A stretch of 64,000 nt of DNA from Burkholderiales bacterium (GTDB lineage: Bacteria; Pseudomonadota; Gammaproteobacteria; Burkholderiales; JACQAP01). The translations under genes were made by a program, and so were the position numbers. The notes under the pieces are model-generated. The model had not been told where the DNA came from and searched no databases. It saw only the letters and a program-made list of their open reading frames with translations. Below are positions 10,785-51,833 of the stretch, one piece after another. Every line of letters starts with the position of its first letter. The first letter of the stretch is position 1. The stretch lies in contig DASZTG010000080.1 of assembly GCA_035548375.1 (NCBI GenBank), forward strand, positions 81,185-145,184. Direction: 5' to 3'.

Positions 10785-12100
10785 GCGAATCGTCGCCCGC
10801 GAACGGCAACTGGTTCGTCTCGTTGAGGGCCTGCCGCGACGAATTGAGGGCGGCGGCGCTGCCTGGCGCCGTGCTCGTGATCGCGGGTGTCGCCGCACTC
10901 GTCAGCCAGCGCTATTCGACTTCCCTCGGCAATATCGGCGTGTTCGGTCCCTATGCCGTACTGATCATCGGCACGGCCATGGCCGTGTGGTTCAATCGCG
11001 GCCGCGCATTCATTGCGCTGGTTTCGATGCTCGTCGCGTTCATCGCCTACCGGATGGCCCTCGCGCCAGGCGACGACGGCTTTCCCGCCCGCGCCGTGCT
11101 GACGGCAGCCGCCATTTTCGTGCCCGCGAACATCCTGATCGTGCTGTCGTTCAAGGAACGCGGCATCGCGTACTTCCGCAACTATCGCTGGATGCTGCTC
11201 GGACTCACGGAGATCCTGCTCACCGCCTGGATCGCGACGGCGGGCCGCAGCGCCCTCTCGGGCACGGCGTGGCACGAGGCTATGGACCACTGGCTGCTGA
11301 GGGCGGCGCCCACACCTTTTCTAGGCCGCGTCGCGATCGCCGCGGCGCTCGTCATGGCCGTCGCAAGGGCCTGGGAGAAACGCCTGCCGCTCGACATCGG
11401 CATGGTCGGCGCAGTGATCGCATTCTTTCTCGCCTGCGAATGGGCGAATCTCACGGTGGTCTTCGGCATATTCGTCTTCGCGGCGGGCGCCACGCTGCTG
11501 CTGGCCGTCCTGCAGGAATCGCATCGCATGGCTTTTCGCGACGAGCTGACCGGCCTGCCCGGCCGTCGCGCGCTCGAGGAGAAACTGGTGGCGCTGGGAC
11601 CCTCGTATGCGATCGCCATGGTGGATGTCGACCACTTCAAGAAATTCAACGACACGCACGGCCATGACACCGGCGACCAGGTGCTCAAGCTCGTCGGCGC
11701 CAAGCTGGCCGAAGTCGGCGGCGGCAAGGCGTTTCGCTATGGCGGCGAGGAATTCGCCGTCGTGTTCCCCGACCAGGGCGTTGAGGACGCGCTACCCCAC
11801 CTCGAGAAACTCCGCAGGAACATCGAGGACTACCGCATGTCGGCGCGCACGTCAGAGCAGCGGCGCGCCGAAAGACGGCCGAACAGCGACCGGCGCACGC
11901 CGTCGAAATCGGCGTTCGCAAGACAGGATGCGAACGCGCCGCCGCTGCGCACGCATCGCGCGGAGCAATTGTCGGTCACCGTGAGCATCGGCGTCGCCCA
12001 ACGCACGGAATTGCTGGACACGCCGTCGATCGTGATCAAGGAGGCCGATGCGGCGCTGTATCGGGCCAAGGGCGGCGGCAGGAACCGGGTCAGCACGTAA
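10781..12100 (+). CDS. membrane-anchored diguanylate cyclase (GGDEF domain)
   Basis: 439 aa. The N-terminal half has multiple TM helices. The C-terminal half reads RDELTGLPGRRAL...VDVDHFKKFNDTHGHDTGD...RYGGEEFAVVFP (GGEEF active site). The TTG start overlaps the upstream stop (TTGA at 10781-10784). Confidence 0.85.
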   Translation: MSESSPANGNWFVSLRACRDELRAAALPGAVLVIAGVAALVSQRYSTSLGNIGVFGPYAVLIIGTAMAVWFNRGRAFIALVSMLVAFIAYRMALAPGDDGFPARAVLTAAAIFVPANILIVLSFKERGIAYFRNYRWMLLGLTEILLTAWIATAGRSALSGTAWHEAMDHWLLRAAPTPFLGRVAIAAALVMAVARAWEKRLPLDIGMVGAVIAFFLACEWANLTVVFGIFVFAAGATLLLAVLQESHRMAFRDELTGLPGRRALEEKLVALGPSYAIAMVDVDHFKKFNDTHGHDTGDQVLKLVGAKLAEVGGGKAFRYGGEEFAVVFPDQGVEDALPHLEKLRRNIEDYRMSARTSEQRRAERRPNSDRRTPSKSAFARQDANAPPLRTHRAEQLSVTVSIGVAQRTELLDTPSIVIKEADAALYRAKGGGRNRVST

Positions 12101-36196: not shown

Positions 36197-36454
36197 TCAC
36201 CGCGTCACTCCCGCCGCGACCAGGGCGACCTTTTCCTGCCGCCCCATGGCCTTGATCTCGTGCTCCCGTCGCAGTGCCAGCGAGCGCGACGCCACTTCCT
36301 CGCGATAGACCAGCGTGACGGGCCGCCGCCCTCGCGTATAGCTTGCACCGAGCCGGTTGCTCGAATTGTGCTCGTCGATGCGACGCGACAGGTCGCGCGC
36401 GATTCCGGTGTAGAACGTACCGTCGGCACAGCGCAGGATGTAGACGTACCACAT
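36197..36454 (-). CDS. GIY-YIG nuclease family protein (UPF0213-like)
   Basis: 85 aa. MWYVYILRCADGTFYTGIARDLSRRIDEHN... is the classic GIY-YIG N-terminus. Confidence 0.85.
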   Translation of the reverse strand: MWYVYILRCADGTFYTGIARDLSRRIDEHNSSNRLGASYTRGRRPVTLVYREEVASRSLALRREHEIKAMGRQEKVALVAAGVTR

Positions 36455-36496: not shown

Positions 36497-36599
36497 AATG
36501 TGAATGGGGAAGGGAGAATGGTAAGTGCCCTGGAGCTCTAAAGCCTTTACCCTTCATGCATTCCCCCTTCTCCCTTCCCCATTCACGCAATCCCTTCAC
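36497..36599. repeat. GTGAATG/GGGAAGG-unit inverted-repeat element between tandem minus-strand genes
   Basis: GTGAATGGGGAAGGGAGAA in the left arm is perfectly complementary to TTCTCCCTTCCCCATTCAC in the right arm. The loop contains GCTCTAAAGC, which is also found in the element at 58528-58712. Confidence 0.85.
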
Positions 36600-37246
36600 T
36601 GTTCTCCGCTTCTTCCTGCAACCAGCCGGCGAAGCTCCGCCACCTCTTCCCGCAGGGCCGCCACCTCGGCCCGCAGCACTGCAAGCGCGCCTTCCGGTTC
36701 GGCCGCCGGCGCGGCGCGCGGCGCGCCGGGATCGACCGGGCCATTGAGCAAATGCATCCAGCGATGCTCGCGCGCACCGGGCACTTTCGCCAGCCTTACC
36801 GCGAGCGGCCCGCTCGCGCGCTCGGCCATTTCGTCTAGATAGGCTTCCACGCTGGAAAGGTCCGCGAACTGGTACATGCGCTCGCACGCGGTGCGCAATT
36901 CACCCGGTGTCTGCGCGCCGCGCAGCATCAGCGTGACGAGCAGCGCGGTCGTGCCGGCGTCGGTGCCGAGCACCTGCGAAAGGTTATGCGCATAGCGCAC
37001 GACACGGCGCGATGCGCCCCAGCTTTGCGTGACGAATTTCCTGTCCCTCAAGCCGTCCAGGGCCGCCTGCACCTCGTCTTCCGCCACGTTCATGACCGGA
37101 TCGCGGCTGGTCTTCTGGTTGCACCCGGCGACGAGCGCGTTCAACGAAAGCGGATAGTAATCGGGCGTGGTGAGCTGCTTTTCGACCAGCACGCCGACGA
37201 CACGGATCTCGAGCGCGGACAGCACGGGCAAATTCGATTCGGACAT
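36596..37246 (-). CDS. yceH: YceH-family (DUF480) protein
   Basis: 216 aa. LSALEIRVVGVLVEKQLTTPDYYPLSLNALVAGCNQKTSRDPVM. Confidence 0.85.
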   Translation of the reverse strand: MSESNLPVLSALEIRVVGVLVEKQLTTPDYYPLSLNALVAGCNQKTSRDPVMNVAEDEVQAALDGLRDRKFVTQSWGASRRVVRYAHNLSQVLGTDAGTTALLVTLMLRGAQTPGELRTACERMYQFADLSSVEAYLDEMAERASGPLAVRLAKVPGAREHRWMHLLNGPVDPGAPRAAPAAEPEGALAVLRAEVAALREEVAELRRLVAGRSGEQ

Positions 37247-37368: not shown

Positions 37369-38220
37369 TTGCGCCTTTCCCGTCTCGCCTGCGCCTTCGC
37401 CAGCGTCGCCTGCATGTCAGGCGTCGCGGCAATGGCGCAATCGCTGCCGAAGTCTTCGCCCGTGCCGGGCGGTGTCGCGATCGTGAAACTGGGCAGCGAG
37501 GAGCAGGCGCCCATCGCAAGGCTGGGCGACAATCGGGTTCTCGTCGCCAACGGAGACGACGGCTGGATCGCGCTGGTCGGCATCCCGCTGGAGACTGCCG
37601 CGGGCACCAGGTTGTCGCTGGCGGTCGAGCACGCGAGCGGCACCAGATCGACCGTCAAGGTCGCGGTGTCCACCAAGAAATACGCGACGCAACGCCTGAC
37701 CGTGAAGCCCGGCCAGGTCGACCTGTCTGCCGAAGACCAGGCGCGCTATGAAGGCGAACGCACGCACCTGTCGGAAATGCGCAAGACCTTTTCCGAGGCC
37801 CTCCCCGAATCGCTGCGACTGGCGCAGCCCTGCGAAGGCAAGCGCACCGGCACCTATGGCCAGCGCCGCTTCTTCAACGGCCAGGCCCGCAATCCCCACA
37901 ACGGCATGGACATTCCCGCACCGCAAGGCACGCCTGTCGTCGCCGCGGGGGAGGCGACCGTCCTCGACGTCGGCGATTATTTCTTTTCGGGGAATACCGT
38001 GATGCTCGATCACGGCCAGGGCTTGCTCACGCTCTACGCCCACCTGAGCGCAGTGGAAGTCAAGCCCGGGGACAGGGTCGCCACGGGTGCCGTCATCGGC
38101 CGCGTCGGCGCGACCGGTCGCGTCACCGGCTCGCACCTGCATTTCAGCGTCTTCCTGAATTCGGTTGCGGTCGATCCGGCGCTGTTCCTGCCTGCGGAGG
38201 ATGCCAGCGGCGCGAAATGA
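37369..38220 (+). CDS. M23-family peptidoglycan metalloendopeptidase
   Basis: 283 aa with a TTG start giving a signal peptide. HNGMDIPAPQGTPVVAAG...LDHGQGLLTLYAHLS...GSHLHFSV (HxxxD / HxH motifs). Confidence 0.85.
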   Translation: MRLSRLACAFASVACMSGVAAMAQSLPKSSPVPGGVAIVKLGSEEQAPIARLGDNRVLVANGDDGWIALVGIPLETAAGTRLSLAVEHASGTRSTVKVAVSTKKYATQRLTVKPGQVDLSAEDQARYEGERTHLSEMRKTFSEALPESLRLAQPCEGKRTGTYGQRRFFNGQARNPHNGMDIPAPQGTPVVAAGEATVLDVGDYFFSGNTVMLDHGQGLLTLYAHLSAVEVKPGDRVATGAVIGRVGATGRVTGSHLHFSVFLNSVAVDPALFLPAEDASGAK

Positions 38221-38234
38221 AGCGCAATGTCGCG

Positions 38235-41200
38235 CTACGCGACTTCCAGTGAAGACCCGCGCACGCGTTTCGTCTCTGTGATCCTGCGGCGGCCCCAGCC
38301 GCCGCGCCCGATCGGCTCGATGCCGTTGGCTGCAAGCGTGCGACGCAAGTCTTCCAGCACGGTGTGGCGCCGGCGCAGGAAGGCGTTGGCGAAGCAGCGC
38401 CAGAATACCCAGCCCACGCGTTGCAAGGTGCGCTGGCGCCGCATGTCGTCGACCCACTGCTGCGGCCCCTGGTATTTGTCCCCGTCGCACTCCACCGCGA
38501 GCCGCGTATCGTCGCCGCCTTCGACGACCAGGTCGATGCGATAGGCGCCGATTGCAACCTGCGGCGTCACGTGGTAGCCCTCGCCGTTCAGCCAGTCGAA
38601 CAATTCGCGCTCGATGCGCGACTCGCACAGGGTGCGCAGGTCCGTCACGCGCGCCGGTTCCTCCGCGAAGGGCCGCGAGAAATGCGTGATGAGGCCGCGG
38701 CGCAGCCGGTCCAGCTCGGAAAGCTGGTCGAGCTCCACGGAGCGCACCAGCACCATCCGGTCGCGCGCACGCGACGCGGCAACGTTGAAACGTTGCGCAT
38801 AGGTGTCGCGCGCAAGCGGCAGGCCGATGTCGTTCGGGGCGCAGACCATGGACAGGTACATGACGTCGCGCTCGCGCCCCTGGAACTGCCGCGCGTCCCC
38901 GCAGATCAGCGCATGCCGGCGCAATACTTCTGGCGTGAGTTCCTCGGTGAGCCGCTCCCAGATGCGCATGGCCTGGGCCTCGCCCAGCAGCGACACCACG
39001 CCGATCGAGCGCTCCAGCATCTTCGGATCGGTAGTGAGCGCCTTGATGTCGCGGACGATGAACTCGGCCTCCGCCCGGTTGATGCCGCCCTCGCTGCGCG
39101 CGTCGCTGACCACGTAGTCGAGCAGCGGCGGGTCGAGCCTGCGTGAAGCGGTGGAGAGCCGCAGCGGATAGAGCTCGTGGTGATAGAACTCGCGCTTGGA
39201 ATACTCGATGATCGGCGACACGCAGCGGAAATGCTCCTTCAGCATGACGCCGTTTTGCACGAACACGACCTTGGCAAGGTCGTAGATCGATCGATCGGTG
39301 GACATCTGCGCGGCGTAGACCGGAACCTGCTCGGACAGATGCCGCCTCATCAGCGAGACGATGCGCTCCTCGTCCACGCCGACGGTTTGCGGCGCCACCT
39401 GCCGGTCGTCGCCGACGATGAGCAGCTTCCTGGCCCGCAGCAACACCGGCAGCGCCGAAATATCCGATTGCGAGGCCTCGTCGATCACGACCAGGTCGAA
39501 GCTGCCGAGTTGCGCGGGAAGCGACTCGGACACGCGGTGGTGCGCCATGATCCAGCATGGGATCGCACGCTGCGCCTCGGCGGCCGCGGCGCGCGCGTCG
39601 CGCCGGTAGCGATAGGCGCGCTTGCCCGTGCCCTTGCCGATGCGTTCGATGGCATTCAGATAGGCCTGCAGCGCCGAGCGCACGGCCGTGGTCGCATTCT
39701 CCGCGAGCTTGAGCCAGCTGCGCTTGACCACCAGCTCCTCGTAGCATCGCGAAAGATCGTATTCGACTTCCACGCGCGCCGCGGAAAGTTTCTTCAGCTC
39801 GTCATGGGCATCGATCGCCTGCAGGTGGCTCGCCAGCCGGCGCAGCCGCCAGTCGCGCAGGACAGTCGCGGCGGAAAGCTTTTCGTCCAGGCCGGTCGGC
39901 GTCTGCCGCAGCTTGTGAGCGAGCTTGGGCGCGCCGGCGGCTTCGATGTTCGCGGTCACGCTGGCCACGATCCCCAGCGGCTCGGCAAGGGTGCGAAGGC
40001 GCGCCAGCTCCGACTCGAGCAGCTTCCAGCCGGCGAGCAGCTCCGCTTCGCCGACCTCGGGATTTCCCAGCATCTTCGCCATGAATTCGCGCATGCGGTC
40101 GAACACGCGGCCGCGCTTGCCGTCGAGCACGCGGTGCAATCCCTCGACCACCGACGACACCTCGCCGAGCTGGGACTTGGTGAGGTGGAACGCGAGCGCC
40201 AGTTCCAGTTCCACGAGCGCGGCGGAGTTCTGGTGTGCCGTGGCCGCGCGCGGCCAGCCCGGGAACAGCGACAGCGCCATGCGCGACAGCGTCTCTTCCT
40301 CGCTTGCCAGCCGCCTGAGCCTCGCGTAGTCGGCAAGCTGGGATTCGGCCGACAGGCGGCCTTTCGCATCCGCGGAGAGCACCGCCTGGAAGCCGATTTC
40401 CGGTGCCAGCGCATTCCAGCGCGCGGTCAATGCACGCCTGGCCTTCTGCAGGTCCAGGTGCGCCTGAATGAGCTTCCACTGCGCCATTTCGTTCGGGCGT
40501 TCGCCGTTGACCCGCACCAGGTCCAGCAGTTTCTTCGCCTCGGGCTTGCCGAATATCGCGAGGCCGAAAGCACGGCGTCCCTCCGCCAGGTTCGCCACCG
40601 CCTGCACGAACTGCGCGTCAGCATCGGCGCCGTCCGGCACGAACACCGCACGGGCGAGCGACTGCATGCGCTGCGAGCCGGCGCGCTCCATGTCTTCGGC
40701 CAGCGCTTCCAGCAACTCGAACAGGCGCGCCGGCGAGCGGCTTCTCAGCCGCACCATGGTTTCATCGGTCCACGAGGTGCGCAGCGCCTTGATTTCCTCG
40801 CGCAGTGCCTTGACGTGGACGATCTGCTCGGCCAGCAGCCTTGCTTCTATGAGCGACTCGGCACCGGAGCCCGCCGGCACCGGCAGTTCGCTGGCGCGTG
40901 CTTCATGCACGACCACGGCGTAGCGCTGCAGGTCATCGTGCGCGCGCACGAGAAGCAGCGAATTCGGCAATTCTCCCGGCCCGGGCAGCGGATTGACGGC
41001 GTACTGGATGTCCTCGCCGAGCTGCCGGCGCGCTTCCCGCAGGCGCACGATGTCGTCGGCGGAAAAACGCGGCGCGTACTGCGGGCCCACGCCGAGCGCG
41101 TCGGGCATCCACTCGAACTGGCCGATGTTGCGCATGACGTCGACGGCGGCATCCTGCGGGTCGATGTGCTCGCCTTCCAGGTCGATGCGCGAAACATTCA

Positions 41201-42932
41201 GCTTCGCCCAGCGCCCGAGGTCGGTGTCGATGCGCTTCAACTTGGCATGCAGGGCATCGACGGATTCCACCAGGCCGTCGACCCTGCGGCCGGTCGCGAC
41301 CGGGTCGAGGCTCTGGACCTCGGAAAAAATCTTGCGGATGGAGCCCTCGAGCTGGCTTGCGCCATAACGGTCGCCGGCGAGGACCGCGAGCGCCAGGGCC
41401 TGGATATCGCCCGGCAACAGGTCGCGCAGCACCGACAGCGCCGGATCGCGCATCGAGGTCACCAAGACGCGGCGCCCGTTCGCCAGCCAGTGGCAGATGA
41501 TGTTGGCGATGGTGTGCGTCTTGCCGGTTCCCGGCGGCCCCTGCACCACGACGCCGTCCGACACCTCCAGCATTTGCACGATGCGCGCCTGCTCGTCGTT
41601 GAACGGCTTCGGGAAGAACAGGTCCTGCGCCTCGACCGGCTCGGCGGCCCCGCCCGCATGGTAGGCGGCGGTCACGCCCCGGTACGACGGCAGCTTTGCC
41701 GGCGCCGCATCGCCAGCGGGTTCGCTGACCAGCGCCGCCACGGCGCCGGGCAGCGGCATGTCTTCCCGCTGTTTCGAGAGCATTTCGCGGAAGCGCTCGA
41801 GGTCCTGCACCGCGAAGACCGAGCTGCGCGGCCGCGCGAACAGCACCCAGCCGCCGATCAGTTCGACGCTGGCCGCGCCGGCATGGTTTGGAGGACTGCC
41901 CGCCGCCAGGGCGTTGCGCAGGATTTCCGCCAGCGGCTGCAGGCCATCGGCATCGAAGGCGGACAGCGGCTCGCTGACGCTGGTCAGGTATTGCTCCATC
42001 TCCTGTTCGGCCCGGGACAGGGCCGCGCCGTCGCCGTGAAGGAAGACTTCGAGCTCGAACCTGGGATCGACGTCACGCGGACGGATTTGCGCGGCCTGGG
42101 TCTCGGCATGGAAGCCGAGGTCCAGCGCCCGCGTCATCAAGGGATAGATCGTTTCCGCATCGCCCTGCCGGCAGCGGCACAGGCCCATGCCCCAGACCAG
42201 CTCGAGCTGTCCTTCCACCAGCGCGCCGGAAAGCTCCTGCTGCAGGGTAAACAGGCTGACGTAGAGATCCGCGGCCTGCCGGCGCTGGCTATCGGCCTGC
42301 GCCCACGACTGCCACGACGACTCCACGTAGCGGGCGAGCTGCGCCTCCACTTCGGCGCGGAACGGATAGCTTTCCAGGCGAACGGACGCCTGCGGATCCA
42401 CCGCCGGGTCGGCGGCCGCGCTGAGGTCCGCCACGGATTGATGGATGTCGCGGTGCGTGCCGGCGGCGATGAGCGCCTCACCCCTGACTTCGGCCGCCAG
42501 GGCGGGTTGCTCTGAGGACGATCGCGCGACGAGCCAGGGCGAAAGCCACCGGCTGTCGGTCAAGGGAGCGTTTCCGGCCGCGGGCGGCTGCGACAGCGCC
42601 AGCCAGATGTCGTCGTTGCCGTCCGGACCGGCGTCGTTGATGCGCAGGCCGCGTATGCCCTGCGCCTGGTGATCGAAAAGCAGGAGGTTGCCGTGATCGG
42701 CCACGTTCGATACGGGGCGGCTGCGCGCGCGCATCGATTGCAATGCATAGTCGACCAGCGCAACGAGGCGCCTTTGCGGAAGATTCACGGCCGTTGATAC
42801 GGTTCTTGTGATTCTGGCTTGAAAGTTTGCGTGTGCCGCTATCGTACCCGCAACCTTTGCGCCAATCGAGTGATCTGCGGCATCGCGCGCGCATCGAGAA
42901 ATCGCGGACGCGACGACGGCAGCCGCAGACAT
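38235..42932 (-). CDS. 1565-aa SF1 (Upf1-like AAA_11/AAA_12) helicase fused to a C-terminal PD-(D/E)xK DUF559/Vsr-like nuclease; Hhe-like architecture
   Basis: Walker A VVQGPPGTGKTH (aa 465-472, nt 41517-41540). Walker B LVVIDEASQ (DEAS at nt 39471-39482). LLIVGDDRQ, LKEHFRC, QFQGRERDVM and FNVAASRARDRMVLV. C-terminal YRIDLVVEGGDDTRLAVECDGDKYQG...RVGWVFWRC (nt about 38373-38624). Confidence 0.9.
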   Translation of the reverse strand: MSAAAVVASAISRCARDAADHSIGAKVAGTIAAHANFQARITRTVSTAVNLPQRRLVALVDYALQSMRARSRPVSNVADHGNLLLFDHQAQGIRGLRINDAGPDGNDDIWLALSQPPAAGNAPLTDSRWLSPWLVARSSSEQPALAAEVRGEALIAAGTHRDIHQSVADLSAAADPAVDPQASVRLESYPFRAEVEAQLARYVESSWQSWAQADSQRRQAADLYVSLFTLQQELSGALVEGQLELVWGMGLCRCRQGDAETIYPLMTRALDLGFHAETQAAQIRPRDVDPRFELEVFLHGDGAALSRAEQEMEQYLTSVSEPLSAFDADGLQPLAEILRNALAAGSPPNHAGAASVELIGGWVLFARPRSSVFAVQDLERFREMLSKQREDMPLPGAVAALVSEPAGDAAPAKLPSYRGVTAAYHAGGAAEPVEAQDLFFPKPFNDEQARIVQMLEVSDGVVVQGPPGTGKTHTIANIICHWLANGRRVLVTSMRDPALSVLRDLLPGDIQALALAVLAGDRYGASQLEGSIRKIFSEVQSLDPVATGRRVDGLVESVDALHAKLKRIDTDLGRWAKLNVSRIDLEGEHIDPQDAAVDVMRNIGQFEWMPDALGVGPQYAPRFSADDIVRLREARRQLGEDIQYAVNPLPGPGELPNSLLLVRAHDDLQRYAVVVHEARASELPVPAGSGAESLIEARLLAEQIVHVKALREEIKALRTSWTDETMVRLRSRSPARLFELLEALAEDMERAGSQRMQSLARAVFVPDGADADAQFVQAVANLAEGRRAFGLAIFGKPEAKKLLDLVRVNGERPNEMAQWKLIQAHLDLQKARRALTARWNALAPEIGFQAVLSADAKGRLSAESQLADYARLRRLASEEETLSRMALSLFPGWPRAATAHQNSAALVELELALAFHLTKSQLGEVSSVVEGLHRVLDGKRGRVFDRMREFMAKMLGNPEVGEAELLAGWKLLESELARLRTLAEPLGIVASVTANIEAAGAPKLAHKLRQTPTGLDEKLSAATVLRDWRLRRLASHLQAIDAHDELKKLSAARVEVEYDLSRCYEELVVKRSWLKLAENATTAVRSALQAYLNAIERIGKGTGKRAYRYRRDARAAAAEAQRAIPCWIMAHHRVSESLPAQLGSFDLVVIDEASQSDISALPVLLRARKLLIVGDDRQVAPQTVGVDEERIVSLMRRHLSEQVPVYAAQMSTDRSIYDLAKVVFVQNGVMLKEHFRCVSPIIEYSKREFYHHELYPLRLSTASRRLDPPLLDYVVSDARSEGGINRAEAEFIVRDIKALTTDPKMLERSIGVVSLLGEAQAMRIWERLTEELTPEVLRRHALICGDARQFQGRERDVMYLSMVCAPNDIGLPLARDTYAQRFNVAASRARDRMVLVRSVELDQLSELDRLRRGLITHFSRPFAEEPARVTDLRTLCESRIERELFDWLNGEGYHVTPQVAIGAYRIDLVVEGGDDTRLAVECDGDKYQGPQQWVDDMRRQRTLQRVGWVFWRCFANAFLRRRHTVLEDLRRTLAANGIEPIGRGGWGRRRITETKRVRGSSLEVA

Positions 42933-43011
42933 AAGCGCGAGAAGGACTTAGGCGCCGGGACTAAAGCACAACGTGATGCGCGGCTTGGAGCCGCGCATGT
43001 TGAAAGCTAGC

Positions 43012-43045
43012 GGCAAACGAAAAACGGGCGCATGGCGCGCCCGTT
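43012..43045 (-). terminator. Rho-independent terminator downstream of lon
   Basis: The 8-bp GC-rich stem ACGGGCGC / GCGCCCGT (43024-43031 / 43037-43044) is followed on the minus strand by TTTTTCGTTT. It lies 17 nt after the lon stop. Confidence 0.7.
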
Positions 43046-43061
43046 CCCCGTCGCCGGATTG

Positions 43062-45490
<2,429 letters not shown>

Positions 45491-45494
<4 letters not shown>

Positions 45495-45910
45495 GTCGAC
45501 TCCTTCTTGTTCTTGCTGAATGTGAGGGTGAGACACCCGTCCTGCAATGTCCTGCCGATCAACGCGAGCGACTGCGTGGGCAGCCCGATGCGCCGCTGGA
45601 AGCGGCCATGCGGGATTTCCAGCGCATGCACGCGTGCCCTGCCGTCGGAGCCTTCGAGCGGAAACGGCCGCCGCGCCGAAACCACGATGGCGCCCGGCTC
45701 GAACTGCACGAGGATGGAATCGGCGGCCGCGCCGGGCAGCGCCACGTGAACCGCCACGGTGTCCGCGGTTTCGATAACGTCCGCCGGCGGCTCCCATGCG
45801 GGTACCGCCGTGGCGGCCGGCCGGAAGAACTGGCGATGCAACCGGTCCGCCTGCTCCAGCAGCGACAAGGCTTCGCCCCACATGAGATTCGAGAGGTCGC
45901 GCGAATTCAT
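45491..45910 (-). CDS. Hsp20/alpha-crystallin family small heat-shock protein
   Basis: The ATG (complement of 45908-45910) is preceded by AAGGAG. ...PPADVIETADTVAVHVALPG...GRFQRRIGLP...LQDGCLTLTF. Its stop overlaps the lon start (ATGA). Confidence 0.8.
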
Positions 45911-46929: not shown

Positions 46930-47022
46930 GGCCTGCTCCTGTGGTGTTGTGGTGAGACGATGGTAGCCGAATCCGCAATGCGGGATTCCGTTGGCGCCGC
47001 TCCGCTGGGAACCGAACCGACG

Positions 47023-47559
47023 CTACGCAGAGAGGCGAATGGGGGGTTCCGCGTCGTCTTGCGCGATTGCATTCGCTGACGGCGCATGCAGTTGCGCCTG
47101 ACGCGATTGCACGAGCGCGGCAATCTCCAGCGCGCGCGAGAACGGCACATCCACGGTGAGCAGGATGGTCCCCTCCGCCGCGGCGCGCTCCAGCGCGGCG
47201 ATCCTGGAATTGGGTGCCAGCACGCCGGCCGTCATGGAAATGCACGCGCCGATCGCCGCACCGACGATCGCGCCGACCGGCAATGTGGCGAGATAAAGGT
47301 GCGTCTCCGGCGGTGGGAACAGGACCATCAGGCCGCCGACGATCCAGCCCAGCATGGCGCCATAGGTCAGGCCGACGCCGGCGATCGGGAGGAATTGCGC
47401 CTTCTGCAGGACGCCGGATTCCGGCAGGTCGTCCAGCGACGATCCCCGGCTCGCCACGCAATGGATGTTCGGGCTCGCGATGCGCGCCCCCAGCAGGTCA
47501 TGCACGACCTGTTCGGCGCTTGCGATGTCGGGCAACGCGAAGTAGAGAGTCTGGTTCAT
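47023..47559 (-). CDS. hypothetical membrane protein
   Basis: 178 aa with an ATG start. Central Gly-rich TM pair (IAGVGLTYGAMLGWIVGGLMVLF / LPVGAIVGAAIGACISM). No family recognised. Confidence 0.5.
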   Translation of the reverse strand: MNQTLYFALPDIASAEQVVHDLLGARIASPNIHCVASRGSSLDDLPESGVLQKAQFLPIAGVGLTYGAMLGWIVGGLMVLFPPPETHLYLATLPVGAIVGAAIGACISMTAGVLAPNSRIAALERAAAEGTILLTVDVPFSRALEIAALVQSRQAQLHAPSANAIAQDDAEPPIRLSA

Positions 47560-47721
47560 CGGTGGAAGCGGAATTCGCGCGGGCAGGCGGAATTCCTCGC
47601 ATGCGTCTGACTGCCGCCGACGACCGTTGGTTCCAACGGAGTATTCGCGCGATCAACGCGCGCACCGGCGCGCACCAGAGGTGGACCGTCGGCTCCGTAT
47701 CCGTGCATGCGTGCAAGCAAG

Positions 47722-48624
47722 TTAGCGATTGCCCGCATCGCGTGGAGGGATCGTCTTCAGGAATGCGTGAATCGCGTCGGCGTCGGTATCGTCGAGTAGC
47801 GCGAAGCTGCGAAACGGCATGACCCTGCTGACTTCGCTGCCGTCCGGACGCTTGCCCGAACGCAGCATCGCGCGAAACTTTTCCGGCGTGTCGTAGCTGC
47901 CCATGACGCTGCCCTTGCCCGGCGTGAGGTTCGCCGCCGGCGGCCAGGCTGGCGGGCCGCCCGGAATCTTGCCGCCGGACAAGCCCGGTCCGTGGCAGCC
48001 GATACAGGCGTTCGCCACGTAGGCGCCGTGTGTCGCGTTGACCGCCGCCGGCACAGGCCTGGAGGGCGGCAGCGAGTGATCGATTTTCTCGGCGGAATCC
48101 CGGATCACGCCGAATGCGTAGAGCACTTTCACCGGAAGCGGCAACCTGATTTCCGCGCCCTGGCCGTCGACTGGCGGCAGGCTGCGAACATAGGCCACGA
48201 GCGCGGCCAGGTCTTCGTCGGTGAGGCGGTTGTAGTCTTCGCTCGGCATGATGCGGGCGGGTCGGCCGTCCGGCTTGACGCCATGTCGAATGGTCCGCAC
48301 CCAATCCTCGGCCGAGTATTGCGCTGTGACGCCGCCCTTGCCGCCGGTTATGTTCGGCGCATGTATATAGAGTGAGCCATCGTTCACGACATCCGCGCCG
48401 TGCCCGTCCTGGGCGTGGCACTCCATGCAGCCGCGCGATTCGAACAGATATTTGCCGCGGGCAACGGCGCCGGCGTCGCTGGCGAATTGGACCGGCACGA
48501 CGGTGACGGCGACCGTGCGATTCGACTTGCGCTCGCTCAAGAACATGCCCGCAAGCGCGATGACGGCCGCGAGCACCACCAGGATCGCCACCAGAACGCC
48601 GAGAACGTTGAACACCCGCTTCAT
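47722..48624 (-). CDS. di-haem c-type cytochrome, membrane-anchored
   Basis: 300 aa. N-terminal TM helix and two CxxCH sites (CMECH, CIGCH). Confidence 0.8.
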   Translation of the reverse strand: MKRVFNVLGVLVAILVVLAAVIALAGMFLSERKSNRTVAVTVVPVQFASDAGAVARGKYLFESRGCMECHAQDGHGADVVNDGSLYIHAPNITGGKGGVTAQYSAEDWVRTIRHGVKPDGRPARIMPSEDYNRLTDEDLAALVAYVRSLPPVDGQGAEIRLPLPVKVLYAFGVIRDSAEKIDHSLPPSRPVPAAVNATHGAYVANACIGCHGPGLSGGKIPGGPPAWPPAANLTPGKGSVMGSYDTPEKFRAMLRSGKRPDGSEVSRVMPFRSFALLDDTDADAIHAFLKTIPPRDAGNR

Positions 48625-48692
48625 GCTTTTTCTTCGCTTGTCTGCATAGTCGATTGTTCGACCTGAAAAAAATAAATCCGGGCCGACGCACC

Positions 48693-48728
48693 AATAAAAA
48701 TGCGGCGACCGCCAGGCAGTCGCCGCAT
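48693..48728 (-). terminator. Rho-independent terminator downstream of the catalase-related gene
   Basis: Perfect 10-bp stem ATGCGGCGAC / GTCGCCGCAT (48700-48709 / 48719-48728) with a 9-nt loop, followed on the minus strand by TTTTTATT. Confidence 0.8.
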
Positions 48729-48770
48729 CGCGAAGTCTATCCGAATTATGGCTATTGCATGAATGTTCGC

Positions 48771-49775
48771 CTACTTCAGGCGTTGCCCGATGCTGACCGC
48801 GTAAGCTCCCGGACGTGCAAGCAGAATCGGGTCGGCCGACGCCTCGATGCCGTCGGTCAAGGTCAGCGGATTGAACATCAGCGCCTTCTGCGCCTGCGCG
48901 TCGTTGGCAACCGGAGCGGTGAGGGTGATCAGGCCCAGGTCGACCTGCGCACGATCATCGGGCCACACGGAGGTCGGATCGGTCAGCGAGTCACCCTTCT
49001 TCGCCAGCTGCACGATGAGCCGGAATTGCACGGGCTCGCGCGCCAGCCGCGCCGGCAGCTCTTCCATCAAGTAGTTCGGCCCCTTCTCGGCGACGGCCTT
49101 GTCACTCAAGCGCTGGTCGCCAGCGACGGGCAGGATCTGGTAGCGGCCGTATTCGCTCACGCCTTGCGCATTGGTGAACTTGAAAGCATTGACGCCGTAA
49201 AAAGGCAGCGTGGCGAAACTCGCGGGCGCGGGCTTGGGCGTCGTGACGAATTTCACGGTCTCCGGATGGCTGCCGAGGAATTGCTCGATGGGAGAGGGCT
49301 TCGGCGCATCCGGACCGCTCTTGGCAACGGCCGTCAGCAACGCCAGAAGGTCCTCCGGCGTCTTGACCGGGAAGCCGTTGGCGGAGATGGCGACGATGTC
49401 GGTATACGAGCCGTCCGCGAGCTGGAAGCGGATCGCCATGCCGTGCGGACTCGCGTTCGGATCCGCGTCGGGAATGACCGGCACACCCGTGGCATTCGAA
49501 AAGCGCACTGTCACGGGAACCGTGCCCTGCAAATGTGCGGCCTTGGAAAGCGATGGCGCGACATCGGTCGGCGTGAAGGTTCCCGTCGCCAGCACGCCCT
49601 TGGCGTGGTTCGCGCGATAGCCCTCATGCGGACCGCCCGCGAGCGTGTTGAATGCGCCGACGAGTTGCTCGGACAGGCTTTTTTCTTCGGCGAATGCCGC
49701 GCCCGTTGCGCACAAGCCCAGGCAGGAAGCGGCCGCGATCGCCGCAAGAGTTAACCGGTTGTTTCTCAAGTCCAT
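48771..49775 (-). CDS. catalase-related peroxidase (small catalase-family haem protein), secreted
   Basis: The internal ATG (complement of 49773-49775) gives the signal peptide MDLRNNRLTLAAIAAASCLGLCATGAAFA. HAKGVLATGTFTP...VTVRFSNATG. Confidence 0.75.
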   Translation of the reverse strand: MDLRNNRLTLAAIAAASCLGLCATGAAFAEEKSLSEQLVGAFNTLAGGPHEGYRANHAKGVLATGTFTPTDVAPSLSKAAHLQGTVPVTVRFSNATGVPVIPDADPNASPHGMAIRFQLADGSYTDIVAISANGFPVKTPEDLLALLTAVAKSGPDAPKPSPIEQFLGSHPETVKFVTTPKPAPASFATLPFYGVNAFKFTNAQGVSEYGRYQILPVAGDQRLSDKAVAEKGPNYLMEELPARLAREPVQFRLIVQLAKKGDSLTDPTSVWPDDRAQVDLGLITLTAPVANDAQAQKALMFNPLTLTDGIEASADPILLARPGAYAVSIGQRLK

Positions 49776-49895
49776 GATGTCCCCTTTGATTTCTCTCCGC
49801 AAATGCGAAGGCCAGGGATCTTATAAGTGGATCGTGACAGGCAGGCAACCATGAATTTCATGAATCGCGCATGCGCATTTGCGCGTGAGCCCGCG

Positions 49896-49908
49896 AATTC
49901 GAAAGCAA
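49896..49908 (+). promoter_or_regulatory. putative Ada box (AAT-N6-GCAA) upstream of ada
   Basis: AATtcgaaaGCAA at 49896-49908, about 80 nt upstream of the ada ATG. It matches the E. coli Ada-binding consensus AATnnnnnnGCAA. Confidence 0.35.
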
Positions 49909-49986
49909 GGAGCGGAGTGTTCGCCCGCGGCCCCACCCCCATCATTGCTTCGACGGCGCATTCGCCGGCTCGACTGGAGGACTATC

Positions 49987-51072
49987 ATGGGGTTCATGAA
50001 CACGGATGCTCAAGCAGGCGCTACGACCTACGCGACGGACGACGATCGGTGGGCAGCGGTCGTGCGCCGCGATCGCGAGGCAGACGGACGATTCTTTTAC
50101 TCGGTCAGGACGACTGGGGTGTACTGCCGGCCGTCCTGCGCGTCGCGGACGGCATTGCGCAAGAACGTTGCTTTCCATGCAACGATCGAAGACGCCGAAC
50201 GCGCGGGTTTCCGCGCCTGCAAGCGCTGCAAGCCCGGCGCGCAGGGACTCGACGAACGGCATGCGGCCGGAGTCGCACGCGCATGCAGGTTGATCGAAGC
50301 TTCAGGCGAACTGCCGACGCTGGACGAACTTGCTCGCGAAGCCGGCATGAGCCGGTTCCACTTTCATCGGATCTTCAAAAGCGTAACGGGCGTAACACCG
50401 AAGGCCTACGCAACCGCGCAGCGCGCAAACCGGGTGCGGGAATCCCTTCCTCGCAGCGGCACGGTGACGGAAGCCATTTACGACGCCGGTTTCAATTCCA
50501 ACGGCCGCTTTTATGCGAAATCCACGGATGTGCTCGGCATGACGCCTTCGACGTTCCGTGACGGCGGCACGGGCGAGACGATCCGCTTTGCGCTCGGCGA
50601 ATGCTCGCTCGGCTCTATCCTCGTCGGCGCGACGGACAAGGGTGTGTGCGCCATAACCTTGGGCGACGATCCGGAAAAGCTGCTGCGCGAACTGCAGGAC
50701 CGCTTTCCCAAGGCGAAGCTGGTGGGCGCGGACAAGGAATTCGAGCGCCTCGTCGCCCGCGTCGTTGGATTCGTCGAATCCCCGTCGCTCGGCCTCGACC
50801 TGCCGCTGGACGTGCGCGGCACGGCGTTCCAGCAACGCGTGTGGCAGGCCCTGCGCGAAATCCCGCCGGGCCGCACCGCAAGTTACGCGCAAGTCGCGGC
50901 CCGCGTCGGAGTACCGAAGGCGGTGCGGGCGGTGGCACAGGCTTGCGCCTCGAACGACATCGCCGTGGCGATCCCCTGCCACCGGGTCGTGCGCAGCGAC
51001 GGCGCGATATCGGGCTATCGCTGGGGTGTGGAGCGCAAGCGTGCGCTGCTCGATCGGGAGATGAAGCCTTGA
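49987..51072 (+). CDS. ada: bifunctional Ada regulator / methylated-DNA-protein-cysteine methyltransferase
   Basis: The internal ATG at 49987. N-terminal Zn-Cys4 (VYCRPSC...FRACKRCKP), an AraC-type HTH (SRFHFHRIFKSVTG), and the C-terminal active site IPCHRVV. Confidence 0.9.
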   Translation: MGFMNTDAQAGATTYATDDDRWAAVVRRDREADGRFFYSVRTTGVYCRPSCASRTALRKNVAFHATIEDAERAGFRACKRCKPGAQGLDERHAAGVARACRLIEASGELPTLDELAREAGMSRFHFHRIFKSVTGVTPKAYATAQRANRVRESLPRSGTVTEAIYDAGFNSNGRFYAKSTDVLGMTPSTFRDGGTGETIRFALGECSLGSILVGATDKGVCAITLGDDPEKLLRELQDRFPKAKLVGADKEFERLVARVVGFVESPSLGLDLPLDVRGTAFQQRVWQALREIPPGRTASYAQVAARVGVPKAVRAVAQACASNDIAVAIPCHRVVRSDGAISGYRWGVERKRALLDREMKP

Positions 51073-51833
51073 GGACGGCGGCCCAGCGGCGCTTGCAACT
51101 GGAAGAGCCGCTCGCGGTCGACGCGGAAACGCGGGAACGCGTGGCCGCGCACGACTGGGATCGCGTCGCCTGCGAGCTCGATGCACAGGGCCACGCGATC
51201 CTGGCGGGCTTGCTCGCTCCGGCATCCTGTGTTTCGCTCGCGGCAGCCTATACGAATGATGCGCTCTTCCGCAGCCGCGTAGTGATGTCCCGCCACGGTT
51301 TCGGGCGCGGGGAGTATCAATATTTTTCCTATCCGTTGCCCGAACCCGCCGCCAGCCTGCGCACCGCGCTGTATCCGCACCTGGTCGCCACCGCGAATCG
51401 CTGGAACGAATCGATGGGCCTGAAGCCGCGCTTTCCGGACGAGCATGAGGAATTCCTGGATCGCTGCCATCGCGCCGGCCAAGTACGCCCGACCCCACTG
51501 CTTCTGCAGTATGGCGCAGGCGACTACAACTGCCTGCACCAGGACCTCTACGGCGAGCATGTTTTTCCGCTGCAGGTCGCCATCCTGCTATCCCGACCCG
51601 ATCTCGATTTCAAAGGCGGCGAGTTCGTGTTGACCGAGCAGCGGCCGCGCATGCAGTCGCGCGTCCAGGTCGTTCCGCTGCGGCAGGGCGATGCCGTGGT
51701 GTTCGCGGTCTACAATCGGCCGGTGCAGGGAACGCGGGGCATTTATCGAGTGAAGATGCGCCACGGCGTAAGCCCGATCCTGTCGGGGCGCAGGCATACG
51801 CTTGGCATCATTTTTCACGACGCGCAGGCGTAG
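51069..51833 (+). CDS. Fe(II)/2OG-dependent oxygenase of the type co-occurring with ada
   Basis: The TTG at 51069 overlaps the ada stop (TTGA). CLHQDLYGE (HxD), RMQSRVQVV...RHGVS. About 254 aa. The start assignment is inferred. Confidence 0.7.
   Translation: MRTAAQRRLQLEEPLAVDAETRERVAAHDWDRVACELDAQGHAILAGLLAPASCVSLAAAYTNDALFRSRVVMSRHGFGRGEYQYFSYPLPEPAASLRTALYPHLVATANRWNESMGLKPRFPDEHEEFLDRCHRAGQVRPTPLLLQYGAGDYNCLHQDLYGEHVFPLQVAILLSRPDLDFKGGEFVLTEQRPRMQSRVQVVPLRQGDAVVFAVYNRPVQGTRGIYRVKMRHGVSPILSGRRHTLGIIFHDAQA

Follow-up and report, generated by a model that had tools for sequence, protein, structure and literature searches.

Background

Hhe is a single-gene anti-phage system in which a superfamily 1 (SF1) AAA_11/AAA_12 helicase and an MTES_1575 Vsr-like nuclease lie in one polypeptide. 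The description of HheA is credited to Gao et al. 2020 in a passage of the preprint bioRxiv 10.1101/2022.06.16.496414. Hhe is active against lambda, T3, T7 and PhiV-1, and the mutation E1731A in its putative nuclease active site abolishes defence (bioRxiv 10.1101/2022.06.16.496414). A phage gene has been reported to counteract Hhe. The literature that we found on Hhe consists of phenotype data and offers neither a biochemical mechanism nor a closely related solved structure, and our searches yielded no paper describing the anti-phage protein ProA and none relevant to PDC-S37, a single-gene "phage defence candidate" of PADLOC-DB v2. Here we describe a gene of the same general build on the reverse strand (38235-42932) of a 64,000-nucleotide stretch of Burkholderiales DNA (GenBank assembly GCA_035548375.1, contig DASZTG010000080.1, positions 81,185 to 145,184), hereafter the window. 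Its predicted product is a Upf1-like helicase fused to a Vsr-like nuclease, and comparison of sequence profiles places it in a sister family of Hhe, ProA and PDC-S37 that has no name of its own.

A sequence-only reading of the window, made from its letters and open reading frames (ORFs), had proposed that the gene is a stand-alone, HheA-like defence system inserted between housekeeping genes. In what follows, amino acid (aa) numbers refer to the 1565-aa frame of that reading, and all features of the gene lie on the reverse strand.

Results

Domain architecture of the helicase-nuclease

The ORF at 38235-42932 comprises 1565 codons and is intact, with no frame break over 4.5 kb. The most likely coding sequence within it runs from a GTG start at 42788 to a TAG stop at 38235-38237 and specifies 1517 aa. 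Following an N-terminal domain, the motor begins with the N-terminal part of RecA1 (aa 441-522; 41367-41612), which holds Walker A (GPPGTGKT, aa 465-472) and motif Ia and matches Pfam AAA_11, AAA_30 and AAA_19. It resumes after a long insert with the C-terminal part of RecA1 (aa 1124-1225; 39258-39563), containing Walker B (DEAS, aa 1151-1154) and motif III (GDDRQ), and ends with RecA2 (aa 1226-1400; 38733-39257), which carries motifs V (FQGRERD) and VI (FNVAASRAR). The AAA_11 (first stretch aa 444-502) and AAA_12 (aa 1226-1396) matches are both above the Pfam gathering scores. An AlphaFold2 model of aa 440-1565, with a predicted local distance difference test (pLDDT) score of 78, displays a two-RecA motor, for which the best Foldseek matches are IGHMBP2, SETX/Sen1, UPF1, DNA2, Aquarius and ZNFX1 (E 1e-7 to 1e-4, probability 1.0). 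A profile search of Protein Data Bank (PDB) sequences agrees on Upf1-like helicases, with matches at 4e-11. The presence of motifs I, Ia, II, III, V and VI and of a two-RecA fold with an insertion in RecA1 thus identifies the protein, on motifs and model, as a predicted Upf1-like SF1B helicase whose motor is split by an alpha-helical insert of ~600 aa.

The resemblance to IGHMBP2, UPF1, SETX/Sen1, DNA2, Aquarius and ZNFX1 covers the motor fold, its motifs and the site of the insert, which is that of domains 1B and 1C. These are, however, eukaryotic RNA/DNA helicases with small 1B/1C domains, and they lack a counterpart of the N-terminal domain seen here. DNA2 is likewise a fusion of a helicase with a PD-(D/E)xK nuclease, but its nuclease is N-terminal and belongs to another family.

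The C-terminal module (aa 1436-1540; 38313-38627) joins RecA2 via a short linker. Pfam MTES_1575 (PF18741) matches aa 1441-1533 at 91.2 bits against a gathering score of 38.2 (E 4e-26), and the match to DUF559 is weak. The signature RID(1467)LVV...E(1481)CD(1483)GD(1485)KY...GWVFWR contains the invariant residues D1467, E1481, D1483 and D1485, and the motif residues of helicase and nuclease alike show no variation across alignments of 20 and of 57 homologues. We therefore assign the module, from its intact motifs, to the MTES_1575/Vsr-like PD-(D/E)xK nucleases, with predicted activity. E1481 of the ECDG signature would be the counterpart of the mutated nuclease residue of Hhe.

The insert (aa 523-1123; 39564-41366) is all-alpha in the AlphaFold2 model, with helices of 20-37 residues and pLDDT values mostly of 80-95. 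Its only fold matches are MukB and the dynein stalk, at Foldseek probabilities of 0.15-0.3, and its last third aligns to the PDC-S37 profile. Gaps of 600-900 residues between Walker A and Walker B also occur in the reference Hhe and ProA proteins, so that the long insert is a trait of the class rather than a peculiarity of this gene.

The N-terminal domain (aa 49-440; 41613-42788) is family-specific, of mixed alpha/beta structure, and the fastest-evolving part of the protein. Between the window protein and homologues at 49-76% overall identity, it is 32-64% identical, compared with 42-77% for the insert, 66-88% for the helicase core (RecA1 and RecA2) and 62-90% for the nuclease. It folds confidently in AlphaFold2 (pLDDT 83), and a fold search against the PDB gave no match (best E 0.3, template modelling (TM) score below 0.15). 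Among viral models there was one weak match, to a fragment of an unnamed "AAA domain protein" (E 2.7e-4, TM 0.2), which is probably the N-terminus of a related helicase. A Pfam scan at E<=0.1 detected no DUF4011 in the window protein, and hhalign found no similarity between its N-terminal profile and the N-termini of Hhe (probability below 3%) and ProA. The idea that the domain is a diverged DUF4011 is thus unsupported by either method. An exhaustive search of a representative library with the N-terminal domain alone returned 433 clusters at 50% identity, 255 of them at E<=1e-10. The domain is always N-terminal in these clusters, whose full-length proteins measure 1,450-1,920 aa. We propose that it serves as a sensor or recruitment module.

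Much of the architecture given in the sequence-only reading holds. The 1565-aa frame exists, with its start now moved to GTG 42788; Walker A and Walker B lie at the residues it named and are followed by motifs III, V and VI; and the C-terminal PD-(D/E)xK module that it compared to DUF559/Vsr-like nucleases scores above the gathering threshold of MTES_1575, with DUF559 only weakly matched. The Pfam search that it had suggested recovers AAA_11, AAA_12 and MTES_1575, and hence both the helicase and the nuclease folds. It had also singled out two parts as probably novel. For the N-terminus this is borne out, as it is the only part that lacks a known relative, either as a PDB fold or as a profile similar to Hhe or ProA. 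For the insert, which measures ~600 aa (523-1123), it is not, since Hhe and ProA are split in the same manner.

Relationship to Hhe, ProA and PDC-S37

As references we used Hhe WP_032441900.1 from a Klebsiella plasmid (1911 aa) and ProA WP_004118855.1 from an Enterobacter IncF plasmid (1963 aa). The best curated match of the window protein is the NCBIfam model NF058533, "anti-phage protein ProA" (1e-59), with a hidden Markov model envelope of aa 432-1534. Its score of 202.2 bits does not reach the cut-off of 1500; five relatives score 219-278 bits, also below the cut-off, and the reference ProA scores 2224 bits. ProA resembles the window protein in being one large polypeptide whose N-terminus is non-catalytic, whose SF1 AAA_11/AAA_12 helicase is interrupted by ~600 inserted residues and which also contains an MTES_1575 nuclease, and hhalign aligns the two with 99.9% probability over aa 1120-1529 at 30% identity. 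ProA differs in three features that were not found in the window protein: a DUF4011 domain (375-545), ~370 additional aa at the N-terminus and, at the C-terminus, DUF3320. The latter domain is present in some distant relatives of the window protein (Sphingobium). The score and the lack of DUF4011 and DUF3320 rule out that the protein is ProA itself.

Hhe, too, is a single-gene system: its N-terminal domain is followed by a Walker A at around aa 440, and after a very long insert come Walker B, AAA_12 and MTES_1575. The window protein likewise combines an SF1 AAA_11/AAA_12 helicase and an MTES_1575 Vsr-like nuclease in one polypeptide. RecA2 and the nuclease of the two proteins align at 29% identity with a probability above 99.7%, and the ECDG signature is common to both. 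The Hhe model NF042953, however, matches only aa 1118-1533 at 134.8 bits (2e-39), against a cut-off of 2000. Hhe moreover carries DUF4011 (1.6e-37), which is not detected here, has a dissimilar N-terminal profile, and ends in a C-terminal tail of ~130 aa that is missing from the window protein. By the cut-off and the lack of DUF4011, the protein is not Hhe. The HheA-like layout proposed in the sequence-only reading therefore stands as an architecture (a split helicase and a Vsr-like nuclease in a single gene) and fails as an identification.

In PADLOC the best match is PDC-S37 (PDLC05009; 1.3e-53), with the best stretch at profile positions 751-1339 of 1550, which corresponds to the last third of the insert, RecA2 and the nuclease. 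Six relatives score 188-260 bits against this profile and align in one stretch over positions of about 298-1341. Scores of 180-260 bits on a profile of 1550 positions mark PDC-S37 as a distant relative, and, to judge from the profile, PDC-S37 has a shorter N-terminus and ~210 further positions at the C-terminus that have no counterpart here. Next in the PADLOC ranking come MkoC, Hhe and MkoA, all through the helicase core. Homology to the Mokosh proteins MkoA and MkoC (E 1e-27 to 1e-32) is limited to RecA1-C and RecA2. Mokosh has another architecture and reportedly uses a PLD nuclease.

In profile-profile comparisons with Hhe or ProA, only aa 1107-1533 can be aligned, at 29-30% identity. Because the alignable part is confined to this region and the N-terminal profile is unlike either reference, the sequence comparisons indicate that the window protein represents a separate, unnamed sister family within the Hhe/ProA/PDC-S37 class.

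Distribution and genomic neighbourhood of the family

More than 2,000 homologues were found. The top 120, almost all of which span the full length (1,425-1,767 aa, with one fragment of 1,017 aa), are 49-100% identical to the window protein; the few among them that are named by organism come from metagenome bins of Betaproteobacteria/Burkholderiales. Most homologues are unnamed, and the rest are annotated as "AAA domain-containing protein", "DEAD/DEAH box helicase" or "very-short-patch-repair endonuclease". Genomic spread was determined with an alignment-based scan of species-representative genomes; a scan of genome contigs with the single sequence gave no match. Scattered members turn up in Pseudomonadota, Chloroflexota (48% identity), Acidobacteriota (49%), Bacteroidota (43%), Planctomycetota, Actinomycetota (about 30%) and Bacillota (26-39%). 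This patchy occurrence across phyla, at 40-49% identity between them, has the pattern expected of horizontal transfer. Plasmid-borne members were found in Sphingobium, Variovorax, Ralstonia and Acinetobacter, and the family is essentially absent from phage genomes. One full-length member (L022; 32% identity) lies on a 12.7-kb contig labelled as a "Camptotheca acuminata" phytoplasma; a binning contaminant is a more likely source for this contig than a phytoplasma.

When all ORFs within 7 kb of the gene were clustered, no neighbour family was common to more than five of the 80 loci. The gene is therefore solitary, as the sequence-only reading had it, and a conserved partner gene can be rejected. 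Several members adjoin defence genes. Three that share the N-terminal domain of the window protein lie directly downstream of Wadjet JetC/JetD in Chromobacterium (L013), directly downstream of the Hma methylase HmaB in Anaerolineae (L003) and, with one ORF in between, downstream of Lamassu LmuA (L002). On plasmids, a relative that matches only from aa 363 on stands right after BREX-1 brxL (Acinetobacter p3ABAYE), another follows a methyltransferase and a restriction endonuclease (Sphingobium pSF1), and a third is near Wadjet-like genes and RmuC (Variovorax). Phage integrase, resolvase and type IV secretion system genes were also seen as neighbours, and at most of the 32 chromosomal loci of the clade the gene is surrounded by housekeeping genes.

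Conservation of the Lon-M23 locus

In the window, the gene is followed by a convergent M23 peptidase gene (37432-38220, forward strand; Pfam and gene call) across a gap of 14 nucleotides (nt), and is preceded by the gene for an 810-aa Lon protease (43062-45494, reverse strand; Pfam and gene calls). This Lon shares 89-90% identity with Lon sequences that carry the labels Burkholderiales and Casimicrobiaceae. The arrangement HSP20-Lon, helicase, variable genes, M23 peptidase, DUF480 and GIY-YIG is repeated in loci L081-L084, L085, L094 and L095; in L097 HSP20-Lon-helicase is kept with another gene downstream, and in L001 the downstream part is kept. Helicase identity across the syntenic loci is 63-79%, and the gene is found at the Lon-M23 locus in at least six related Burkholderiales lineages. 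It is absent from the locus in L093, whose Lon is the most similar to that of the window (89.5%) and where the stop codons of lon and the M23 gene are 18 nt apart, and also in L096. The gene is therefore dispensable and variable. No integrase, flanking repeat or scar was found at the occupied and empty junctions, and the GC content of the gene (66-69%) is only slightly above the window average, with no clear anomaly of composition. These results rule out a recent mobile insertion. The comparison of loci indicates instead that the gene has long resided downstream of HSP20-Lon in a Casimicrobiaceae-like Burkholderiales lineage, with occasional loss.

The helicase and Lon do not diverge in parallel: the window and L097 share 89% in Lon and 63% in the helicase, and L094 and L097 share 86% and 75%. 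Given the narrow spread of the Lon identities, this is only suggestive of allele exchange by recombination at the locus.

The sequence-only reading had described the flanks correctly, namely the convergent M23 gene at a 14-nt distance and the lon terminator, and had taken the gene for an isolated insertion. The latter is contradicted by a position kept across lineages at 63-76% helicase identity and by the lack of an integrase, a repeat or a compositional anomaly. The comparison that it had called for, absence of the gene between the M23 gene and lon in close relatives, gives a divided answer: absence in L093 and L096, presence in at least six lineages.

The interval that separates the M23 gene from Lon or the helicase differs in content among relatives. 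It contains a nucleoside hydrolase gene in L081 (14786-15742) and, in L085 (12740-16082), a SAM-domain gene and a gene with Guanylate_cyc, AAA_16 and TPR matches; in L093 it is empty (11154-11171). Downstream of the M23 gene, the window has genes for an 85-aa GIY-YIG protein (~36197-36454, reverse strand) and a DUF480 protein (36596-37246, reverse strand). Both are kept at this position in all syntenic loci, except that DUF480 is missing in L093. The HSP20 gene (45491-45910, reverse strand) overlaps lon by 4 nt, forming a conserved HSP20-Lon pair; an extension of Lon to 939 aa (start 45881) in the program-made ORF list is probably an over-call. Further upstream (~47000-51800) are an Ada-type regulator/methyltransferase (Ada_Zn_binding, HTH_AraC, DNA_binding_1) and a gene matching Pfam Oxygenase-NA, which are also found a few genes upstream of HSP20-Lon in related genomes.

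Start codon and upstream region

The called frame most likely exceeds the true gene by 48 codons, with translation starting at the GTG at 42788, because the ORFs of homologues in many loci start exactly where aa 49 aligns, conservation in alignments begins at the same residue, and the GTG is kept in orthologous loci. Residues 1-48 are without a counterpart in any homologue. The GTG and the 20 nt preceding it are almost invariant across five syntenic loci. The NCBI gene call places the start at M67 (1499 aa). The first 48 codons of the called ORF (42789-42932) are probably untranslated and would hold the promoter and leader of the gene. Directly 5' of the GTG is a hairpin, CCGU-AUCA-ACGG (42789-42804), that is kept in orthologous loci and may affect translation initiation; no obvious Shine-Dalgarno sequence is present.

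A conserved sigma-70-like promoter candidate (42841-42869) lies 50-80 nt upstream of the GTG, inside the originally called ORF, and consists of TCGATT (42869-42864), a 17-nt spacer and TACGAT (42846-42841). The block recurs upstream of the L086 orthologue, which is 63% identical and stands in an unrelated context, and partly in L002. Its presence in the non-syntenic L086 implies that it belongs to the gene and travels with it, and we infer that it is the gene's own promoter. A stricter consensus promoter scan returned no site at this position. Inspection of the conserved upstream block by eye alone revealed no LexA-type box. The leader matched no Rfam family, and no Rfam family reached its gathering score in the whole window. 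A second conserved non-coding block (42930-42990, reverse strand), CATCACGTTGTGCTTTAGTC...TAAGTCCTTCTC, stands in the stretch that separates the lon terminator from the promoter-like block. It is kept only in syntenic loci (the window, L081, L094, and partly L085 and L095) and could be an operator or a second promoter. The intrinsic terminator of lon (43011-43056, reverse strand) is a hairpin of -34.2 kcal/mol (z -4.4) followed by a U-run. It was overlooked by the terminator scan and confirmed by folding, and is predicted to separate lon from the helicase transcription unit.

Discussion

We favour a function as a single-protein anti-phage or anti-plasmid helicase-nuclease, to which we assign a probability of roughly 0.55 on the strength of homology and of analogy with described systems. 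This reading is founded on the best family matches (ProA, PDC-S37 and Hhe), all of which are anti-phage helicase-nucleases or candidates for such, and on the defence-gene neighbours, the patchy spread, the absence from L093 and L096 and the fast-evolving N-terminal domain. The sequence-only reading had also called the gene a single-gene defence candidate; the matches to anti-phage families and the members in defence islands agree with it, and the long residence at a housekeeping locus does not. In the mechanism that we envisage, the N-terminal domain, possibly with the helical insert, would sense either some property of the invading DNA or of its replication intermediates, or else a protein of the phage or plasmid. 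ATP hydrolysis would then power translocation on single-stranded nucleic acid, presumably in the 5'->3' direction, and the tethered nuclease would nick or cut the foreign DNA or, if the response is abortive, DNA of any kind. As there is no methyltransferase, the distinction of self from non-self would depend on the structure or context of the DNA and not on its modification. The sensing step, polarity, substrate and outcome are all inferred.

Several results weigh against a defence function. The protein falls short of the curated cut-offs of every named family, and an unambiguous defence gene lies within two genes at only ~4 of 32 chromosomal loci of the clade, as a raw count. The near-absence of the family from phages fits defence and fits a cellular role as well. 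Synteny in at least six lineages among housekeeping genes, with no marks of mobile elements, is unlike the behaviour of fast-turnover defence genes; orthologues of 55-63% identity (L086, L087, L088, L098) stand in unrelated housekeeping contexts; and the helicase evolves at a rate like that of its non-essential neighbours (63-76% identity, compared with 65-74% for M23 and 73-79% for HSP20). Such synteny, contexts and rate would suit a chromosomal genome-maintenance enzyme, functionally Dna2-like, that processes 5' flaps, stalled forks, R-loops or damaged DNA, in which case the association with defence islands would stem from an ancestor shared with Hhe and ProA and not from a shared function. 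The nearest solved folds, which include DNA2, SETX and IGHMBP2, the gene's own conserved promoter and, weakly, the Ada-type repair gene a few genes away point in the same direction. We regard such a role as the main alternative but the less likely one, since the gene is dispensable and missing from the locus in L093 and L096, its patchy spread at 40-49% identity between phyla speaks for horizontal transfer, relatives are carried on conjugative plasmids and have Wadjet, Hma, BREX and restriction-modification genes as direct neighbours, visual inspection of the upstream block revealed no LexA-type box, and the closest named families are all anti-phage.

The gene might also encode an anti-plasmid or DNA-topology surveillance factor that works in the manner of Wadjet or Lamassu, with the helical insert as a DNA-embracing arm and the nuclease cutting small circular or replicating foreign DNA. 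The all-alpha insert of ~600 aa with its faint resemblance to MukB and the dynein stalk would be in keeping with this, as would the Wadjet neighbours in L013 and on the Variovorax plasmid and the LmuA gene nearby in L002. Foldseek probabilities of 0.15-0.3 make the resemblance slight, however, and the ordinary clustering of genes in defence islands would account for the Wadjet neighbours just as well. Helices of only 20-37 residues, moreover, imply a helical bundle rather than a long coiled coil of the structural maintenance of chromosomes (SMC) type, and we consider this function improbable. That the gene is a decaying or inactive remnant is very improbable: it is solitary and absent in some relatives, but its frame is intact over 4.5 kb, its motifs are invariant across homologues at 49-76% identity, and its promoter block and start codon are conserved.

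Conclusions

The motor and nuclease of the window protein are shared with Hhe and ProA, and the truly new element is the N-terminal domain. The strongest form of our proposal combines three parts: an undescribed family of single-protein helicase-nucleases, an N-terminal domain that is a new kind of sensor, and a "soft-core" chromosomal gene that is kept vertically in this lineage. Taken together these are doubtful. Were they true, the gene would be either a defence gene stably retained beside HSP20-Lon or a defence-derived enzyme engaged in cellular DNA/RNA surveillance. Current annotation misses or mislabels the family. Since its members share a motor and nuclease with Hhe and ProA and differ in the N-terminal domain, comparison of the families could tell the infection-sensing part of such proteins from the executing part. 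Long residence at a housekeeping locus, together with variation in presence and absence, would make the gene a test case for the co-option of defence helicase-nucleases into genome maintenance.

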